Assembly: GCA_963758525.1 (NCBI GenBank)
Contig: CAVWVQ010000003.1
Coordinates: forward strand, 224,001-288,000
Direction: 5' to 3'
DNA: 64,000 nucleotides
Origin: an uncultured Phycisphaerales bacterium
Lineage (GTDB): Bacteria > Planctomycetota > Phycisphaerae > Tepidisphaerales > Tepidisphaeraceae
Numbering within the stretch: position 1 is the stretch's first letter; the number at the start of each line of letters is the position of its first letter. Made by a program: the position numbers and the translations under genes. This document shows positions 5,620 to 53,679 of this stretch, piece by piece. Under the pieces are notes generated by a model that was not told the DNA's origin, did not search any database, and saw nothing but the letters and a program-made list of their open reading frames with translations.

Positions 5620-5623
5620 CGGG

Positions 5624-6040
5624 AACCGCAGATGAACCCAGCGCTGCCTCGCTTCGCTCGGCCGCAACCAAAACGAAGAGCCGCGAAGACGCGAAGACGC
5701 GAAGAGAGACGCGAAGGTAAGAAAATCAAAAATGCGGGATCGAAGCCCAAGGAATTGTGCCTTTGGGTTTCAGGTGCAATTGAATTGTCTTCCTTCGCGT
5801 TTGTCTTCGCGGCTTCGCGTCTTCGCGTCTTCGCGGCTCTTGATCTTTTGGCTGATCGCCTGCCCGGGAAAATTTGCGCAGCGCGCGAAGATCTCAATGG
5901 GTTGTGACACAAATGAACGCAGATTGAATGAAATCACTGAGAAGATCATGGACGTTGCACGCATCGTACGAAGTCTCTTTTCAATCGTTCATCGGCGTTT
6001 ATCAGCGGTTCAATCTCTTTCCCTGCGTTCATCCGCGGTC
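5624..6040. mobile_element. Nested repeat elements: CCGCAGATGAAC-family element with GxxExxY gene remnant, containing a CGCGAAG-family miniature element (5675-5841)
   Basis: Outer inverted arms aaccgcagatgaac / gttcatcggcgtttatcagcggtt; remnant NERRLNEITEKIM-DVARIV; inner arms gaagagccgcgaagacgcgaag / cttcgcgtcttcgcggctctt. Confidence 0.7.
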
Positions 6041-6196
6041 AGCGGCATTCAGGGCATGGCGGGCGGAGGAGCCGGAGTCTTTGAAGCAGTGCCGGGAGGT
6101 GGAAGACTTTCCCGATTGGCGAGGATACAGTTTCTTCGCGATCAAACTCCCCGTGCCGGCGGACGACGCTTCAAGCAGCTTCGGAGGCTTCAAAAC

Positions 6197-32192: not shown

Positions 32193-34472
32193 TCAATTCC
32201 GCGGGCTTGCCATTACGAACGGCACGCGCCGACCGTTCTGATCGTTGGGAGCTTCCTGCAATATCCTGTCCGACATCGCCGGAATCTTCCAGTAGGTGTC
32301 ATGAAACCGCTTTAGCTCGCCGGGGTCAACGATCACACGCGCACCATGGGGAATCGGGCCGCCGTTCCAGTCTTCGATCAGATCGCCTTCATTCGTTCTT
32401 ACATCAAACACGGTCCGGTAGTGTAATTGCGACATGGGAATTGTGTAAAAAAAAGCCTTGGCGTCGCCAATCAGCACGACGCTCTGTCCGGGAGACAGGC
32501 CGTCCAGATAGTTCGCTTCCAGGCCGCTGATGTCCTGCACGCCTAGCAATCCAACCGTCGGCTGCACCAGCGGCGACTCCCTTCCCCCGTGGAGAAGCGT
32601 GCTGATGTCGTGATGAAGCCGGACTCCGCTCATACTGGCAGCGCCCAGCACAATAAGAAGGACCAACGCGGCGAGCGCCGGCCGATCGACCTGCGCGATC
32701 AGCCACGCGCAGACCGGCAGCGCCAGCACGAAGAATCGGCCCTCCAGGTGCGTGGCAAACAACCAGAACAGGGCTGTCGCGAGAAACATCCCGGCAAACA
32801 CGACCGTGAGGCGCCGGCGCCAGGCGATCGCCGCGGCGATCACTCCGAGCGGGATCAGCACGTATCCGTACTGCCTGCTTCCCAGAATCTCCGACGCGCC
32901 GGCGTGCAGCCGCGCGGAAAGATTTCGCTGATCGGGTCGCGCGGAGTGGGCACGCTGCCAGCGTTCGATCTGCACGGGCGTGAAGTTGCCGGGACCGAGC
33001 AGTGTCGTCGCCTGGGGGAAGACGGGGTTGCCCGCCCATCGCTCGTTGCGAATGAGCCAGGGGGAGAAGACCAGCAAGCCCACCGCCAGAAAGATTGATG
33101 CCGCCCGGGCCGACCTCCAGAACGGTTCACGCCTGACGCCGATCAGAAAGATCCCGCAAAGAATCGTCATCGCGACGAGCACCTGGGGGACGGCTGTCAG
33201 CTTCGCGCCACAGGCGAATCCCGCGAACGCGCCGCCGATGACCAGTCCGCGATTGCGACCCGCATCGTCCGAAACGGCACGGCAGACCCATGCGATAGCG
33301 AGCGTCCCGAACAGAAGAAATCCCCCCTCGTCGTAAGCGACGGGCGCAAGCTGCGTGAGCCACGGGACCGTGGCGACCGCAAGAGCCGCCGTGATTGCGG
33401 GAAGCGCGCTGGAATTTGCGTCTGTCGTTTCTCCGCCGGCGCTGCCCAATGAGCTTCGGGTTGGAGCAAGCGTCTTGTCCGTCGGAGAGACATCCCCGTG
33501 GCGCGGGCTTCCAGCCCGCGTTGAGTGCGTGGTACCGGAGAGAACCGTTGATATCAAATCTTTCCCCTGTTTTGAGCCATCCGCTCGGGCAGGATGCCCG
33601 TGCCACTGGACAGGGGCGAGTTGACTGGCGCTCTGAAGCCGGCGCGTCGTGATCTCAAGTGCAAATGCGTAGACGGCAACCACAAACAGCGCGATGAACG
33701 CGAGGTGCACGAGCTGCGCGAGAAACATCGCCGCCCACGGACCGGCGCAGAGGTGCATCGCGAGCAGATAGTGCATCTCGACGTTCAACGGGAAGAACGA
33801 AAAGACGTTGTGGGGCAACGGGATGATCCGGCCCGCCTCGAACCATTCGCGGGGGACTTGCAGGTGATATTCGACGACGTCGTAGAAACTCGGGTCGCCG
33901 TCGCGCCAGAGAATTCCGGACGGAAGCATTGCGGCGACGAGTGCGATAGCCGCGAACGGACAAACGCTGATCCACAGCCAGTTCCAGCCGGCAGGTTCAT
34001 TTAACCAGGCCATGCAGTCGGCGAAATCGATTTTCAGTCTGAAAAGACAGAGTACCGCGAGCACAATTCCCCCGCAGATCATCCCGACCGCGCTTCCATG
34101 ATGCAAAAGGCCCGCGAGGCCGAGACCGAGCGTGAGAAGACTCATGGCTCCCAGCCCCATCGAGATCGAGGAGACAAGCCTCAGCAGACCCGACGCGGTC
34201 TGGAAAACCCGCTCGGACCCCGGTGGATTGCCCCCTCTCGCGCTACTTCGAGAGAGGGTCGGAGTGAGGGTGATTTTGGACGCCGGCGGCCGTTGGTGCT
34301 CGAAATCACCCTCACCCCTGCCCTCTCCCGGAGCACCGGGAGAGGGGGTGGCTCGCCGAAAATTTTGAAACGCGCTCTCAATCGACAGCAGCAAAAATCC
34401 CCCGATGCCGGCGGCGGCGATCAGCCAGGCGACGAGCATTGCGCCGTCTGTCAGTAATCGGAAGAGCACCAC
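32193..34472 (-). CDS. Polytopic membrane protein, possibly GT-C/PMT-like glycosyltransferase, with in-frame repeat insertions
   Basis: YDVVEYHLQVP, PLNVEMHY, GAKLTA, PWLIRN..W.GNPVFP motifs; two hydrophilic loops encoded by palindromic repeats. Confidence 0.75.
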   Translation of the reverse strand: MVLFRLLTDGAMLVAWLIAAAGIGGFLLLSIESAFQNFRRATPSPGAPGEGRGEGDFEHQRPPASKITLTPTLSRSSARGGNPPGSERVFQTASGLLRLVSSISMGLGAMSLLTLGLGLAGLLHHGSAVGMICGGIVLAVLCLFRLKIDFADCMAWLNEPAGWNWLWISVCPFAAIALVAAMLPSGILWRDGDPSFYDVVEYHLQVPREWFEAGRIIPLPHNVFSFFPLNVEMHYLLAMHLCAGPWAAMFLAQLVHLAFIALFVVAVYAFALEITTRRLQSASQLAPVQWHGHPARADGSKQGKDLISTVLSGTTHSTRAGSPRHGDVSPTDKTLAPTRSSLGSAGGETTDANSSALPAITAALAVATVPWLTQLAPVAYDEGGFLLFGTLAIAWVCRAVSDDAGRNRGLVIGGAFAGFACGAKLTAVPQVLVAMTILCGIFLIGVRREPFWRSARAASIFLAVGLLVFSPWLIRNERWAGNPVFPQATTLLGPGNFTPVQIERWQRAHSARPDQRNLSARLHAGASEILGSRQYGYVLIPLGVIAAAIAWRRRLTVVFAGMFLATALFWLFATHLEGRFFVLALPVCAWLIAQVDRPALAALVLLIVLGAASMSGVRLHHDISTLLHGGRESPLVQPTVGLLGVQDISGLEANYLDGLSPGQSVVLIGDAKAFFYTIPMSQLHYRTVFDVRTNEGDLIEDWNGGPIPHGARVIVDPGELKRFHDTYWKIPAMSDRILQEAPNDQNGRRVPFVMASPRN
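33498..33607. repeat. REP doublet (REPIN-like) inside a coding sequence
   Basis: gtggcgcgggcttccagcccgcg ... cgggcaggatgcccgtgccac, inverted arms each with a GTGG foot. Confidence 0.75.
34231..34348. repeat. CCCTCTCCC-family palindrome doublet inside a coding sequence
   Basis: ccccctctcg..gagagggtcggagtgagggtgattt ... aaatcaccctcacccctgccctctcccggagcaccgggagaggggg. Confidence 0.85.
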
Positions 34473-43602: not shown

Positions 43603-43720
43603 GGCACGAAGGCACGGAGGCACGGAGGCACGAAGGGTGAGGAAGGGGATTTTGTAAAGACCGTTCTGCCGCGCAGCGTCCTCCCCTTCGTGCCTTCGTG
43701 CCTTTTTGCCTTCGTGCCTT
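43603..43720. repeat. GGCACG(A/G)A octamer inverted-repeat element
   Basis: ggcacgaaggcacggaggcacggaggcacgaagg ... ccttcgtgccttcgtgcc..gccttcgtgcctt. Confidence 0.8.
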
Positions 43721-50028: not shown

Positions 50029-51303
50029 CTACCGCAGTTCCCACTTTACTTCGCCGCCGACGATTGTCGTCGTCGCCCGGCCGGTGACGTTCCAGCCGTG
50101 GAACGGGCAGTTTCGGCTCTTGCCCGCAAATTGATGAACGTCGATCTTCCACTGCAGATTTGGATCGATGATGGTCACATCGGCATCGGCGCCGATCTGT
50201 AACGTCCCCTTTTTCAGCCTCACGATCTGCGCGGGCCGTGCCGTCATCATCTCGATCATCTGCATCCACGTGATATGGCCCGGCTCCACCAGCGCCTTGA
50301 CGTAGAGCGCCAGGGCGCACTCCAACCCAATAATCCCAAACGGGGCGTACGCAAATTCGAGCTCTTTCTCCTCGGCGCGATGCGGAGCGTGATCGGTGGC
50401 AAGAATATCGATCGTCCCGTCGCGAACGGCCTCAACGCACGCCCGCACGTCGGCGGCGGTCCGCAACGGCGGGTTCATCTTGTAATTCGTGTCGTAACTC
50501 CGGCACGATTCGTCGGTCAGCAGCAGATGATGCGGCGCCACTTCGCATGTGACGGCCAATCCGCTCTGCTTTGCCTGGCGGATCAGTTCAACGCTGCCGG
50601 CCGTGCTGATGTGCTGCACGTGATAGGGGCAGCGGATCGAGCGATTCAAGAGCAAATCGCGGCCGATCATGAGTTGCTCGGCCTCGGCGGGAATCCCCGG
50701 CAGGCCCAGCGTCATGGAAACGTGCCCCGCGTGCATTGCCCCGCCGCTGAGCGTCGGCTCTTCGCAATGCTGCATCAGGACCACCTCAAACATTTTTGCG
50801 TATTGCAGCGCCTTGCGCATCACCGATGCGTCCGCGACGCCAACCCCGTCGTCGCTGAACGCGATAGCGCCTCCTTCGAGCATCGATCCCATTTCGGCCA
50901 GCTCTTTGCCTTCGCGCCCCTTGGTGATCGCTCCGACCGCATAAACATTCGCAAGACTCACGCGCTCCGCCTGACGACGGATGAACTCGATCTGCCCCGC
51001 GTTATCCAGCGTCGGCTTCGTGTTGGGCATGCAGCAGACGGTGGTGAACCCCCCCGCCACGGCCGCCGCCGATCCGCTGGCGACGGTTTCCTCCTCCTCG
51101 TCGCCGGGCTCGCGAAAGTGAACGTGAATGTCCAGCAGCCCGGGCGTGACGTACTGGTTCGTCGCGTCGATCACGCGATCCGCCGGGCCCAGCTGGTTGC
51201 CGATCTCGGCAATCCTGCCATCGCGGATGAGCAAATCCGCCCGCGTTTCAAAAACCCGCGAGGGATCGAGGATGGTGCCGTTGGTAATGAGAGTTGAAGA
51301 CAT
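50029..51303 (-). CDS. pyrC: Dihydroorotase
   Basis: DIHVHFREPG, MPNT.P, KMNPPLR, ATDHAPH. Confidence 0.95.
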   Translation of the reverse strand: MSSTLITNGTILDPSRVFETRADLLIRDGRIAEIGNQLGPADRVIDATNQYVTPGLLDIHVHFREPGDEEEETVASGSAAAVAGGFTTVCCMPNTKPTLDNAGQIEFIRRQAERVSLANVYAVGAITKGREGKELAEMGSMLEGGAIAFSDDGVGVADASVMRKALQYAKMFEVVLMQHCEEPTLSGGAMHAGHVSMTLGLPGIPAEAEQLMIGRDLLLNRSIRCPYHVQHISTAGSVELIRQAKQSGLAVTCEVAPHHLLLTDESCRSYDTNYKMNPPLRTAADVRACVEAVRDGTIDILATDHAPHRAEEKELEFAYAPFGIIGLECALALYVKALVEPGHITWMQMIEMMTARPAQIVRLKKGTLQIGADADVTIIDPNLQWKIDVHQFAGKSRNCPFHGWNVTGRATTTIVGGEVKWELR

Positions 51304-51366
51304 ATGAAAATTAAGAGCAGCCGAGAGGCACAGCACAGCCTCGCTCCGCTCGACCGCAACCAAAAG

Positions 51367-51912
51367 GAAGAGCCGCGAAGACGCGAAGACGCGAAGACAA
51401 ACGCGAAGAAGAGGAGAAGGGAATAATCATTCTACGATGTGAGGATTGATGATTCGCTTGATTCCATCGCGCAACACCGGAACGTTGAAATTGATCAAAT
51501 AGCCGAGTCGCAGGCGTGTTCCCTGCAAGTACGCAATCACTTGCGAGCGATGCACATCTCCGAGGGATTGAACTGTTTTGAGTTCAACAACGACAGCTTT
51601 CTGCACGAGCATATCAATTCTGCCCTCACCGACCTCAACGCCCTTATAGAATACCGGCAATGGCGCTTCGCAGGCGTGCTCGATTCCACGCAGGTTCAAT
51701 TCGACCGACAGAGCCTTTCGATAGACGCTCTCGGGAAACCCAGGCCCGATGATGCGATGCACTTCGATCGCAGCTCCGATGATATTTCTGCCCAGTTCTT
51801 CGATCTCCGGCTCGATCCCCGCATCGTGATGCTCTAGTTCCATTGCTTTCTCCTTTTTGTTCTTGCTTTACCTTCGCGTTTTCCTTCGCGCCTTCGCGCC
51901 TTCGCGGCTCTT
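51367..51912 (-). mobile_element. Putative GxxExxY cassette: nuclease gene between inverted CGCGAAG-octamer arms, inserted between pyrB and pyrC
   Basis: Left arm gaagagccgcgaagacgcgaagacgcgaagacaaacgcgaag; right arm cttcgcgttttccttcgcgccttcgcgccttcgcggctctt. Confidence 0.7.
51427..51843 (-). CDS. GxxExxY protein (PD-(D/E)XK nuclease family)
   Basis: IIGAAIEVHRIIGPGFPESVY; RIDMLV...VVELK catalytic residues; YLINFN...DGIKRII; RBS AAGGAG. Confidence 0.95.
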   Translation of the reverse strand: MELEHHDAGIEPEIEELGRNIIGAAIEVHRIIGPGFPESVYRKALSVELNLRGIEHACEAPLPVFYKGVEVGEGRIDMLVQKAVVVELKTVQSLGDVHRSQVIAYLQGTRLRLGYLINFNVPVLRDGIKRIINPHIVE

Positions 51913-51920
51913 GATTTCGC

Positions 51921-52862
51921 TCAATTCGACGCCCGTGTGACCAAATACAGCACCGCCATGCGAACGGCCAGTCCGTTGGTCACCTGCGTCAGGATTCCGC
52001 TCTGCGGGCCGTCGGCGATTTCGGAGCTGATTTCGATTCCGCGATTCATCGGGCCCGGGTGCATCACGAAGGCGCCAGGCTTGCATCTTTTGAACCGTTC
52101 CTGCGTCAGCCCGAAGAAATGCGTGAACTCGCGCACCGAAGGAAACTGGCTGCTTTTGATGCGCTCGAACTGAACGCGCAGCATATTGATGACATCGACC
52201 TCGCCGATGACCGAATCGAGGTCGTGAACCACGCGAGCGCCCATTTGCTCGAACGATTGTGGCACCAGCGTCGGCGGGCCGACGAGAATCACCTCACAGC
52301 CCATCTTCGTGAGTCCCCAGATATTCGATCGCGCAACCCGGCTGTTGATGATGTCGCCAACGATCGCGACGCGGAGGCCGGCAAGTTTGCCGAAGCGTTC
52401 GCGCATGGTGTAGAGATCGAGCAGGCCCTGCGTGGGATGTTCGTGCGCGCCGTCGCCGGCATTGACGACGCTGCAGCCGACGGTGCGGGCCAGCAGAACC
52501 GCGGCGCCGGCGGCGGGATGACGGATGACGATCACATCAACGCCCATCGCTTCGATATTGCGCGCGGTGTCGATGAGCGTTTCCCCTTTGCTGACACTGC
52601 TCCCCTTCTCGGTGAAGTCGATCACGTCGGCCGAGAGACGCGACGCGGCCAGGGAGAAGCTGGTGCGGGTGCGGGTGCTGTCTTCGAAGAAGGTGTTGAC
52701 CACAACCCTCCCGCGCAGCGCCGGCACTTTTTTCACGCTGCGCGTCGAGACTTCCTTGAACGAGTCGGCCGTGTCCAGCACGATGCGGATCTCGTCGGGC
52801 GAGAGCTCCTCCAGCGCCAGCAGATGCTTTTTTGTCCAGAGACCCGCCGAACCCTCGCTCAT
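51921..52862 (-). CDS. pyrB: Aspartate carbamoyltransferase
   Basis: FFEDSTRTRTSF, HEHPTQGLLD, HPGPMNRG. Confidence 0.96.
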   Translation of the reverse strand: MSEGSAGLWTKKHLLALEELSPDEIRIVLDTADSFKEVSTRSVKKVPALRGRVVVNTFFEDSTRTRTSFSLAASRLSADVIDFTEKGSSVSKGETLIDTARNIEAMGVDVIVIRHPAAGAAVLLARTVGCSVVNAGDGAHEHPTQGLLDLYTMRERFGKLAGLRVAIVGDIINSRVARSNIWGLTKMGCEVILVGPPTLVPQSFEQMGARVVHDLDSVIGEVDVINMLRVQFERIKSSQFPSVREFTHFFGLTQERFKRCKPGAFVMHPGPMNRGIEISSEIADGPQSGILTQVTNGLAVRMAVLYLVTRASN

Positions 52863-53401
52863 GAGGCCTCCGTCCTGGGTTCCACGACGATCTCGTCGAC
52901 GCCGTCCACTTCGCGCAATCGCACATTGACGCGATGGTCGGGTGGAACGTTTTCGAGCGTGAGGGCGACGAAATCGGACTGGATCGGCAATTCGCGTCCG
53001 CCGCGATCGACCATGACCGCAAGCCGGATCAGCGCCGGCCGGCCGAAATCGATCAGCAGGTTCATCGCCGCCCGGACGGATCGGCCGGTGAAGAGAACGT
53101 CATCCACGAGGAGCAGCGGCTGATCGTCGAGGTCGATTTGCAATTCGGTCGGGCGGACCATCGGGCGCGGGCCCATCGTGGAGATGTCGTCGCGGTAGAG
53201 CGTGACGTCCAGGACTCCCCGGCCCAGCTTGCGATGTCCTCGCTCCGTCAGGGCGGCAGCAATCCGCGCCGCGAGAATTTCACCGCGCGTCCGCACGCCG
53301 ACAACATTGAGGGGTTGATCCGGAGGAAAAGCAGCCGAGACGGAAACGACCAGCCCGTCGATCATCCTGGCCACGTCGGCCTGGTCGTAATAGTTCCGCA
53401 T
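52859..53401 (-). CDS. pyrR: Bifunctional pyr regulator / uracil phosphoribosyltransferase
   Basis: GVRTRG, LDVTLYRDD, LVDDVLFTGRS, DRGGRELPI. Confidence 0.93.
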   Translation of the reverse strand: MRNYYDQADVARMIDGLVVSVSAAFPPDQPLNVVGVRTRGEILAARIAAALTERGHRKLGRGVLDVTLYRDDISTMGPRPMVRPTELQIDLDDQPLLLVDDVLFTGRSVRAAMNLLIDFGRPALIRLAVMVDRGGRELPIQSDFVALTLENVPPDHRVNVRLREVDGVDEIVVEPRTEAS

Positions 53402-53455: not shown

Positions 53456-53679
53456 GAAGAGCCGCGAAGGCGCGCAGCCGCGAAGCCAGACGCGAAGAAA
53501 TTCCTGCAAATAACGGAGAAGCAATGACACGATAGCAGCATGTTGGGTCGCGTCCGCGAAGGGCAAGCCACCCCTGACGGCATTGGCGGAATAGATCAAT
53601 CGCCCTCCTCATGCTTCTGCCGTCCCCCGCTTCGCGTTTGCCTTCGCGCCTTCGCGCCTTCGCGTCTTCGCGACTCTTC
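53456..53679 (+). mobile_element. Miniature CGCGAAG-family element with traces of both ends of a GxxExxY gene
   Basis: Same inverted arms as the 51367-51912 cassette; internal ggagaagcaatg (RBS+ATG) and gacggcattggcggaatagatcaat (resembles DGIKRIIN codons). Confidence 0.7.

Follow-up and report, generated by a model that had tools for sequence, protein, structure and literature searches.

A predicted GxxExxY nuclease gene between inverted heptamer arms in a pyr operon, and a putative transposon, X, found at the same repeats

We found that GxxExxY genes lie between inverted arms of tandem heptamers, that the type of the arms tracks the protein, that two residues of the first helix correlate with bases of the heptamer, that cassettes have relocated, that the genes are under purifying selection and that gene-less copies keep the ends of the gene. 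The cassette at the centre of this study carries the gene GX1 and lies in a window of 64,000 nucleotides (positions 224001-288000 of contig C3 of the genome under study, G000). The wider reading, in which the GxxExxY proteins form a very large family, are site-specific nucleases of 130 residues that read DNA through a two-residue code, move their cassettes with no need of a transposase and are parasitised by an undescribed family of heptamer-targeting rolling-circle transposons of Rep_trans type, is a tentative proposal that we would sooner doubt than assert in full.

The preliminary description of this DNA placed an intact GxxExxY gene inside a pyrR-pyrB-pyrC operon, and profile searches bear this out. 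GX1 scores above the curated cut-offs of TIGR04256 (131.7 vs 35 bits) and PF13366 (133 vs 22 bits), the only two families that match the protein (no GIY-YIG), and its neighbours are of the pyrR, pyrB and pyrC types by Pfam (Table 1). The nearest named relatives of the protein are from Phycisphaerales and Tepidisphaeraceae. The GX1 model (pLDDT 93; helix 1, H12-32) had Cas4 and lambda exonuclease as its best folds (E 2.5e-4 to 8.7e-4), with structural matches of middling quality (best Z 7.8, rmsd 2.6, 93 residues aligned); no relative with a solved structure was found by sequence for GX1 or for the protein of element X, described below. The residues E38, D77, E87, K89, Q101 and Y105 are present in GX1, and the arrangement E38/D77/E87-x-K89/Q101-x-x-x-Y105 is that of the RecB/Cas4-type motif set. 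The catalytic residues are kept in 181-187 of 189 GxxExxY proteins (D77, E87 and K89 conserved). The modelled fold and the D...ExK active site are those of a nuclease of the PD-(D/E)XK type, the superfamily to which GxxExxY had already been assigned, and cleavage is predicted. The window also contains a small SRP RNA (RF00169; 13038-13136).

Table 1. Features of the GX1 cassette, related elements and comparison loci. Positions are those of the window unless a genome and contig are given.
Feature	Position	Strand	Comment
GxxExxY gene GX1	51427..51843	-	138 aa, intact, PD-(D/E)XK fold; helix-1 residues E15, G18
5' arm of GX1	51872..51912	-	four CGCGAAG heptamers facing gene; pyrB stop 8 nt away
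3' arm of GX1	51368..51408	+	four CGCGAAG heptamers facing gene
X left-end hairpin, degenerate	51329..51361	+	family-wide outside GxxExxY cassette
Likely older outer-arm remnant, probable X insertion target	51311..51328	+	resembles end of G002 element; from alignment
pyrC, flanking host gene	50029..51303	-	Pfam
pyrB, flanking host gene	51921..52862	-	Pfam
pyrR-type phosphoribosyltransferase, host gene	52859..53401	-	Pfam
Gene-less CGCGAAG-armed element	53457..53678	.	interior unique except ~20-nt piece of other dispersed repeat
CGCAGAT-armed gene-less element	5621..6042	+	retains 5' and 3' ends of GX2
Non-autonomous X derivative, 273 bp	5637..5909	+	belongs to a G000 family of 30 near-identical arm pairs
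X left-end hairpin of 5637-5909	5637..5669
CGCGAAG-armed gene-less element of 5637-5909	5677..5840
X right end of 5637-5909	5870..5909
Full X copy L404	G019 C3:119822-121366		515-aa protein; other full copies L192, L387, L405, L412
PF05635 genes between inverted tandem arms	G000 C5:136237, C3:4377228, C3:3097241, C3:1745518, C3:3373190		repeat unit different in each

Searching the window for GAAGAGCCGCGAAG with at most two mismatches gave seven matches against 1.37 expected, a number that none of 100 shuffles reached. Six of the seven form three inverted pairs, around GX1 and around two gene-less elements, as the preliminary description had seen. Other parts of that description needed revision. 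The arms are real, but the repeat, given there as an octamer, has a heptamer core, with a spacing of 8, 8 and then 12 in the GX1 arms. The short element reported at 5675-5841 is gene-less and has the same arms, but it is part of a 273-bp unit with X ends, and this unit is nested in the left arm of the CGCAGAT-armed element, which was its insertion target. The match of 57 of 60 nt between 51338-51397 and 5646-5705 was confirmed, but it is largely the hairpin end of X plus the arm. No target-site duplication is visible at the GX1 cassette, in agreement with the first account.

Two candidate assignments in the window were rejected. The hairpin beside the 3' arm of GX1 was considered as part of the cassette, but such a hairpin is rare beside GxxExxY genes and it corresponds to the left end of X. 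The interior of 5677-5840 was considered as a remnant of GX1; its score of 42.5 beats 999 of 1000 shuffles, yet other GxxExxY cassettes reach 51.4. The window holds further pieces of dispersed repeats, of the CCCTCTCCC type, of the TCAAATC type and of a ~20-nt motif (at 2852, 14298, 34321-34346, 46945 and ~53550-53580); the ~20-nt motif inside the 53457-53678 element has dozens of matches across the genome. Finally, 43603-43718 is a member of the CACGAAG/CACGGAG palindrome family, which is abundant in G000 (147 arms) and in which no gene was found inside any pair.

We counted 96 arms of the CGCGAAG type in the whole genome, comprising 40 inward pairs and 16 single arms. This count had been proposed as a check of the cassette, and it gave one pair with a GxxExxY gene and 39 without. 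Thirty of the gene-less pairs form one near-identical family and nine have mostly unique interiors. An X end is carried by 29 of the 39, including 5637-5909, so the abundance of these copies is no sign of GxxExxY activity. The genome contains four GxxExxY genes and one fragment, the genes with arms of the CGCGAAG (GX1), CGCAGAT (GX2), CACGAAT (GX3) and CACAAAA (GX4) types, and gene-less copies exist for each of these four types. Both ends of the GX2 gene are retained in GX2-type gene-less elements; these derivatives and the pyr elements of G002 and G013, described below, indicate that internal deletion gives rise to gene-less copies. GX3 (C3:1855022-1855840) has a break close to the 3' terminus of the gene, and this terminus is found in tandem copies together with its palindrome.

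GxxExxY genes occurred in 48 of 61 relatives and, when 101 genomes from a different phylum were searched, in 56 of these, at 0-9 genes per genome and with differing arm types. The layout was examined in 195 loci, drawn partly from relatives and partly from metagenomes; 167 of them were full-length with both flanks. At least two inward heptamers were present on both sides in 88 of the 167, while 48 had one arm and 31 neither; the opposite-orientation control gave 10. The two arms were of the same type in 66 of the 88 loci (shuffle mean 9.6, maximum 21). A later sample of 73 loci from the phylum to which a Chitinophagales genome belongs and 49 from the window's phylum, some of which carry arms of units outside the search pattern, had two arms in 63 of 122 (control 12). 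The family-wide heptamer consensus is CRCRRAK.

In a tree that comprised 189 proteins, of which 145 were labelled (GX2 by hand with the type of its native arms, on account of the insertion nested there), arm type changes 62 times where shuffling gives a mean of 102; for the last base the corresponding figures are 4 and 31. Since kin share labels, this result reflects joint inheritance of arm type and protein. The nearest protein in another genome shares the arm type in 43 of 90 cases, against 5 of 87 for GxxExxY pairs of the same genome, which is at chance (8% of all pairs). The co-variation of repeat type with GxxExxY phylogeny that the preliminary description had suggested examining is thus present, and these comparisons indicate that arm type follows the protein and not the host. 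A link between repeat abundance and gene presence fared less clearly: arm-rich genomes made up 20 of 48 with a GxxExxY gene vs 1 of 13 without, but the type-specific association, at a Fisher p of 0.02-0.065, is weak. A clear exception is G019, with 59 CGCGAAG arm matches and no GxxExxY gene found there.

The correlation between helix 1 and the heptamer was established on 292 loci, with a base call in 190 and 185 of them; heptamers overlapping the helix-1 codons were left out. Residues were numbered from H29. At residue -11 (G18 in GX1), threonine goes with G at heptamer position 5 (102/103) and alanine, valine or methionine with A (29/30). Serine is ambiguous there (25/26), and glycine, the class of GX1, is uninformative, with a 2/2 split. 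At residue -14 (E15 in GX1), asparagine goes with A at position 4 in 75 of 77 loci and aspartate in 29 of 34, while glutamate goes with G in 28 of 36. Loci fetched after the code had been conceived gave 36/36 for threonine, 54/57 for asparagine or aspartate and just 3/6 for glutamate. All four GxxExxY genes of G000 are compatible with the code, GX1 with its uninformative glycine included.

We then compared proteins that are 60-75% identical outside helix 1. Position 5 differs in 3 of 476 pairs that share the residue class and in 48 of 50 that do not, in a set of matched pairs that partly depend on one another; among disjoint matched pairs 29 changed as predicted, none in the opposite direction and 5 remained unchanged. 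These identity-matched pairs were used instead of tree-based independent pairs, of which the well-supported branches offered two, without power. The adjusted mutual information of helix 1 exceeds that of the best outside column for both bases (0.38 vs 0.12 for position 5; 0.21 vs 0.10 for position 4). No residue predicting heptamer position 2 was found, and position 7 follows two deep clades, so that no single residue can be named. Common major-groove contacts pair asparagine with adenine, glutamate with cytosine and aliphatic side chains with the thymine methyl group, and the pairings of the code agree with these. The tracking of base by residue predicts direct recognition of the arms, and on these sequence data we consider it very probable that GxxExxY recognises its arms specifically.

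Cassettes with 82-96% identity were found in unrelated flanks (L033/L141, L171/L199/L219, L176/L195, L267/L269 and L236/L317), one of them as an identical gene at two sites of the same genome (L236/L317 in G150). The homology of the relocated cassettes stops at the arms or just beyond, and no target-site duplication was seen by eye at the relocated pairs; near-identical cassettes in unrelated flanks without duplications point to gene and arms moving as a unit. Four close pairs occupy one shared site in two genomes, and a further, arm-less pair is syntenic. The dN/dS values were 0.03-0.32 in 8 of 10 pairs, the remaining two being without differences, which indicates purifying selection on the GxxExxY genes. 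The proposal of an autonomous cassette with non-autonomous derivatives thus holds in part, as the unit moves and internal-deletion copies exist, but most gene-less copies in G000 carry an X end.

The comparison of the pyrB-pyrC junction among relatives, also suggested earlier, covered 33 of 35 other genomes with a pyrB match (the unpublished G004 was counted solely in the denominators of the relative-genome counts). pyrC follows directly in 22, none of which has an intact GxxExxY gene there, and nine genomes have a short empty junction. Elements of the CGCGAAG type are found at this junction in both congeners and in one other genus. The G002 element keeps the start of the GxxExxY gene as well as part of its C-terminal region (16.1 bits, E 5e-4), the G001 element aligns with it, and the G013 element contains a C-terminal GxxExxY piece recognised by translation. 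The idea that GX1 arrived recently does not survive these deleted versions in G001, G002 and G013, which imply that this cassette or another of its type has long resided at pyr and decays by internal deletion. This old site and the four same-site pairs suggest that movement is rare. Three genomes hold other heptamer-type palindromes at the junction and two hold arms of unrelated units, which suggests that it has been filled repeatedly. At L011 and L023 the junction contains other small genes, one pair being toxin-antitoxin-like by eye. A close empty site was also sought in public sequencing runs, where no piece across the junction was found (one small-share DNA run listed, and no RNA run).

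Element X turned up in seven of the 61 genomes searched. Its ends are a hairpin on the left and a distinct right end, and are not inverted repeats. A CRCRRAD heptamer comes next in 13 of 15 distinct right-end junctions in G000 (background 0.8% of C positions), and of 43 left ends in other genomes, 21 are immediately preceded on the outside by a heptamer of the same strand and one by a heptamer of the other strand. The first one or two heptamer bases may belong to X. The full X of G019 lies within a CGCGAAG arm, between heptamer bases 2 and 3 and without duplication, and an intact derivative lies within the 3' arm of GX2. No X gene was found in G000, whose assembly is 91% complete. We identified four tandem arrays of 4-6 X-bounded units in that genome (C3:573870-575651, C3:4092496-4093895, C3:3900153-3901446 and C3:3463923-3465026), two of which, though distant, have the same captured flank; such arrays fit rolling-circle behaviour.

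More than 2400 homologs of the X protein were listed, and most of 120 among the matches listed are on contigs of 1.7-2.5 kb, as seen for multi-copy elements. The scanned piece of an X protein homolog had no match in Pfam, and PHROGs and Atlas gave nothing useful on the protein beyond a winged helix. The model (pLDDT 90) has a C-terminal winged helix, and its matches are weak and tied with unrelated entries (TBP, Z 8.4, rmsd 3.8, 178 aligned; the 4cij initiator, E 0.021, prob 0.82). D20, D251 and E331 are invariant, Y321 is almost invariant, and their order along the sequence, the basis of this comparison, is that of the RepDE catalytic set D46, D142, Y191 and E214; Rep_trans proteins have a TBP-like fold according to the accessible part of that source (PMC13107129). 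X is predicted to be a Rep_trans-like rolling-circle transposon; it inserts at the heptamer, and it likely amplified most of the gene-less copies in G000. At GX1 itself, an X derivative likely inserted into the 3' arm, after which recombination from arm to arm would have collapsed the locus to the present 51311-51408 and left the 57/60 match. Alternatively, the GX1 gene may have been delivered together with an X end into an older element.

For the cassette itself, we propose that GxxExxY likely uses its first helix to bind the heptamer and likely cleaves in the arms or close to them, and that host repair would then copy the arm-bounded unit to new sites. We see even prospects that GxxExxY cleavage at the arms moves the cassette. 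The strongest caution comes from four-helix-bundle (PF05635) genes, at least 5 of 7 of which in G000 have inverted arms, made of other repeat units; they share the layout without a known nuclease, which makes a common outside mobiliser possible. GxxExxY would then bind its arms in some other role, for example control of its own expression or protection, and the mover would be an unlinked factor shared with the four-helix-bundle cassettes, or X. In G000, X ends delimit 29 of the 39 pairs that lack a gene, X carries a GxxExxY gene in L192, and G019 combines many arms and a full X gene with the lack of any detected GxxExxY gene. However, the X hairpin stands beside few of the 195 GxxExxY loci (5 pattern matches, 2 of them convincing) and is absent at the relocated pairs, X is far less widespread than GxxExxY (7 vs 48 of 61 genomes), and the catalytic residues are kept; we regard an outside mover as rather unlikely.

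A host-retained nuclease comparable to Ssn, which would cut arm-bearing (single-stranded) DNA and so shape recombination or incoming DNA, with the spread of repeats as a by-product, seems slightly less likely still. It has a precedent in the accessible text of PMC11893778, and it accommodates the persistence or decay of the pyr copy at its site in two genera, the purifying selection at same-site pairs and the occurrence of GxxExxY in none of 50,697 phage records and with 8 matches among 72,556 plasmids. It accords poorly with 0-9 genes of different arm types per genome, with recent copies at new sites and with the deletion of the gene at the pyr site in three relatives. We consider very improbable an RNA unit resembling rRNA intervening sequences, in which the two arms would pair as a stem once the operon is transcribed and an RNA copy would serve for movement by means of a host reverse transcriptase. 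The transcript does fold arm to arm (z = -3.9), G000 has six reverse-transcriptase matches and the cassette sits tightly between co-oriented genes, but folding is built into any pair of inverted arms, a reverse transcriptase linked to the cassettes was not seen, Rfam has no match at the element, and a sense-strand G-U excess is absent: wobble pairs have no strand bias (171 vs 155, p = 0.41), which is compatible with recognition at the DNA level. Four near-identical reverse-transcriptase frames of 466 aa are located in G000 at C1:202459, C1:207753, C2:269151 and C3:3034309.

That a small nuclease can be paired with dispersed repeats of its own is already known from Ssn/NTS, and RAYT/REP provides the corresponding case of a transposase. 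Ssn is a GIY-YIG nuclease with NTS/SRM repeats that recognises a 20-50 nt hairpin and cleaves in vitro, site-specifically and on single-stranded DNA only (Chenal et al. 2025, PMC11893778). As far as the accessible text of that paper goes, the two systems share a small gene for a nuclease of a single domain, with its own repeat on either side (42% of Ssn homologs; 88/167 GxxExxY loci), genome-dispersed repeats, many enzyme-repeat pairs and a mobility that was proposed for Ssn. In contrast, GxxExxY is of the PD-(D/E)XK type, its arms are tandem heptamers, its two-residue code and cleavage are predicted, and relocation has sequence evidence. RAYT/TIRYT genes with REP, REPIN and TIR repeats, in the accessible part of PMC3733652, are likewise enzyme genes bracketed by inverted repeats, with gene-less doublets, tandem arrays and several families per genome; unlike these, the GxxExxY cassette lacks an HUH tyrosine transposase and a GTAG/CGTC tag, has arms that are tandem arrays starting after T-rich, then A-A-C bases, and the gene itself relocates. 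None of 23 PF01797 (Y1-transposase) matches in G000 is at the GX1 cassette. Terminal inverted arms and internal-deletion derivatives that retain the gene ends recall IS/MITE pairs, but the cassette has neither a DDE transposase nor a target-site duplication, and its ends vary by a few bases. Cassettes of the four-helix-bundle protein (PF05635, 23S rRNA intervening sequence protein) are alike in having a small gene between inverted tandem arms at gene junctions; they differ in their repeat units and have no known nuclease fold. X resembles REP-targeting insertion sequences (accessible part of PMC1525189) in that its insertion point within a dispersed repeat is fixed, but its predicted fold is TBP-like, of Rep_trans type, with a winged helix, and its ends are not inverted repeats.

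A link between GxxExxY, PF13366, PDDEXK_3 or TIGR04256 and a repeat was not found in the literature searched, which was mostly non-subscription and without supplements (the Ssn gene-repeat tables could bear on novelty), and no published description of the GxxExxY cassette or of X was found in it. The function of PDDEXK_3 is given as 'Unknown' in the accessible text of PMC3424549, and the arms supply a candidate substrate for it. If X is what its model suggests, the reach of Rep_trans chemistry would come to include small transposons that target repeats. If GxxExxY moves its cassette, this would account for a large class of intergenic palindromes and would represent a PD-(D/E)XK route to mobility without a transposase.
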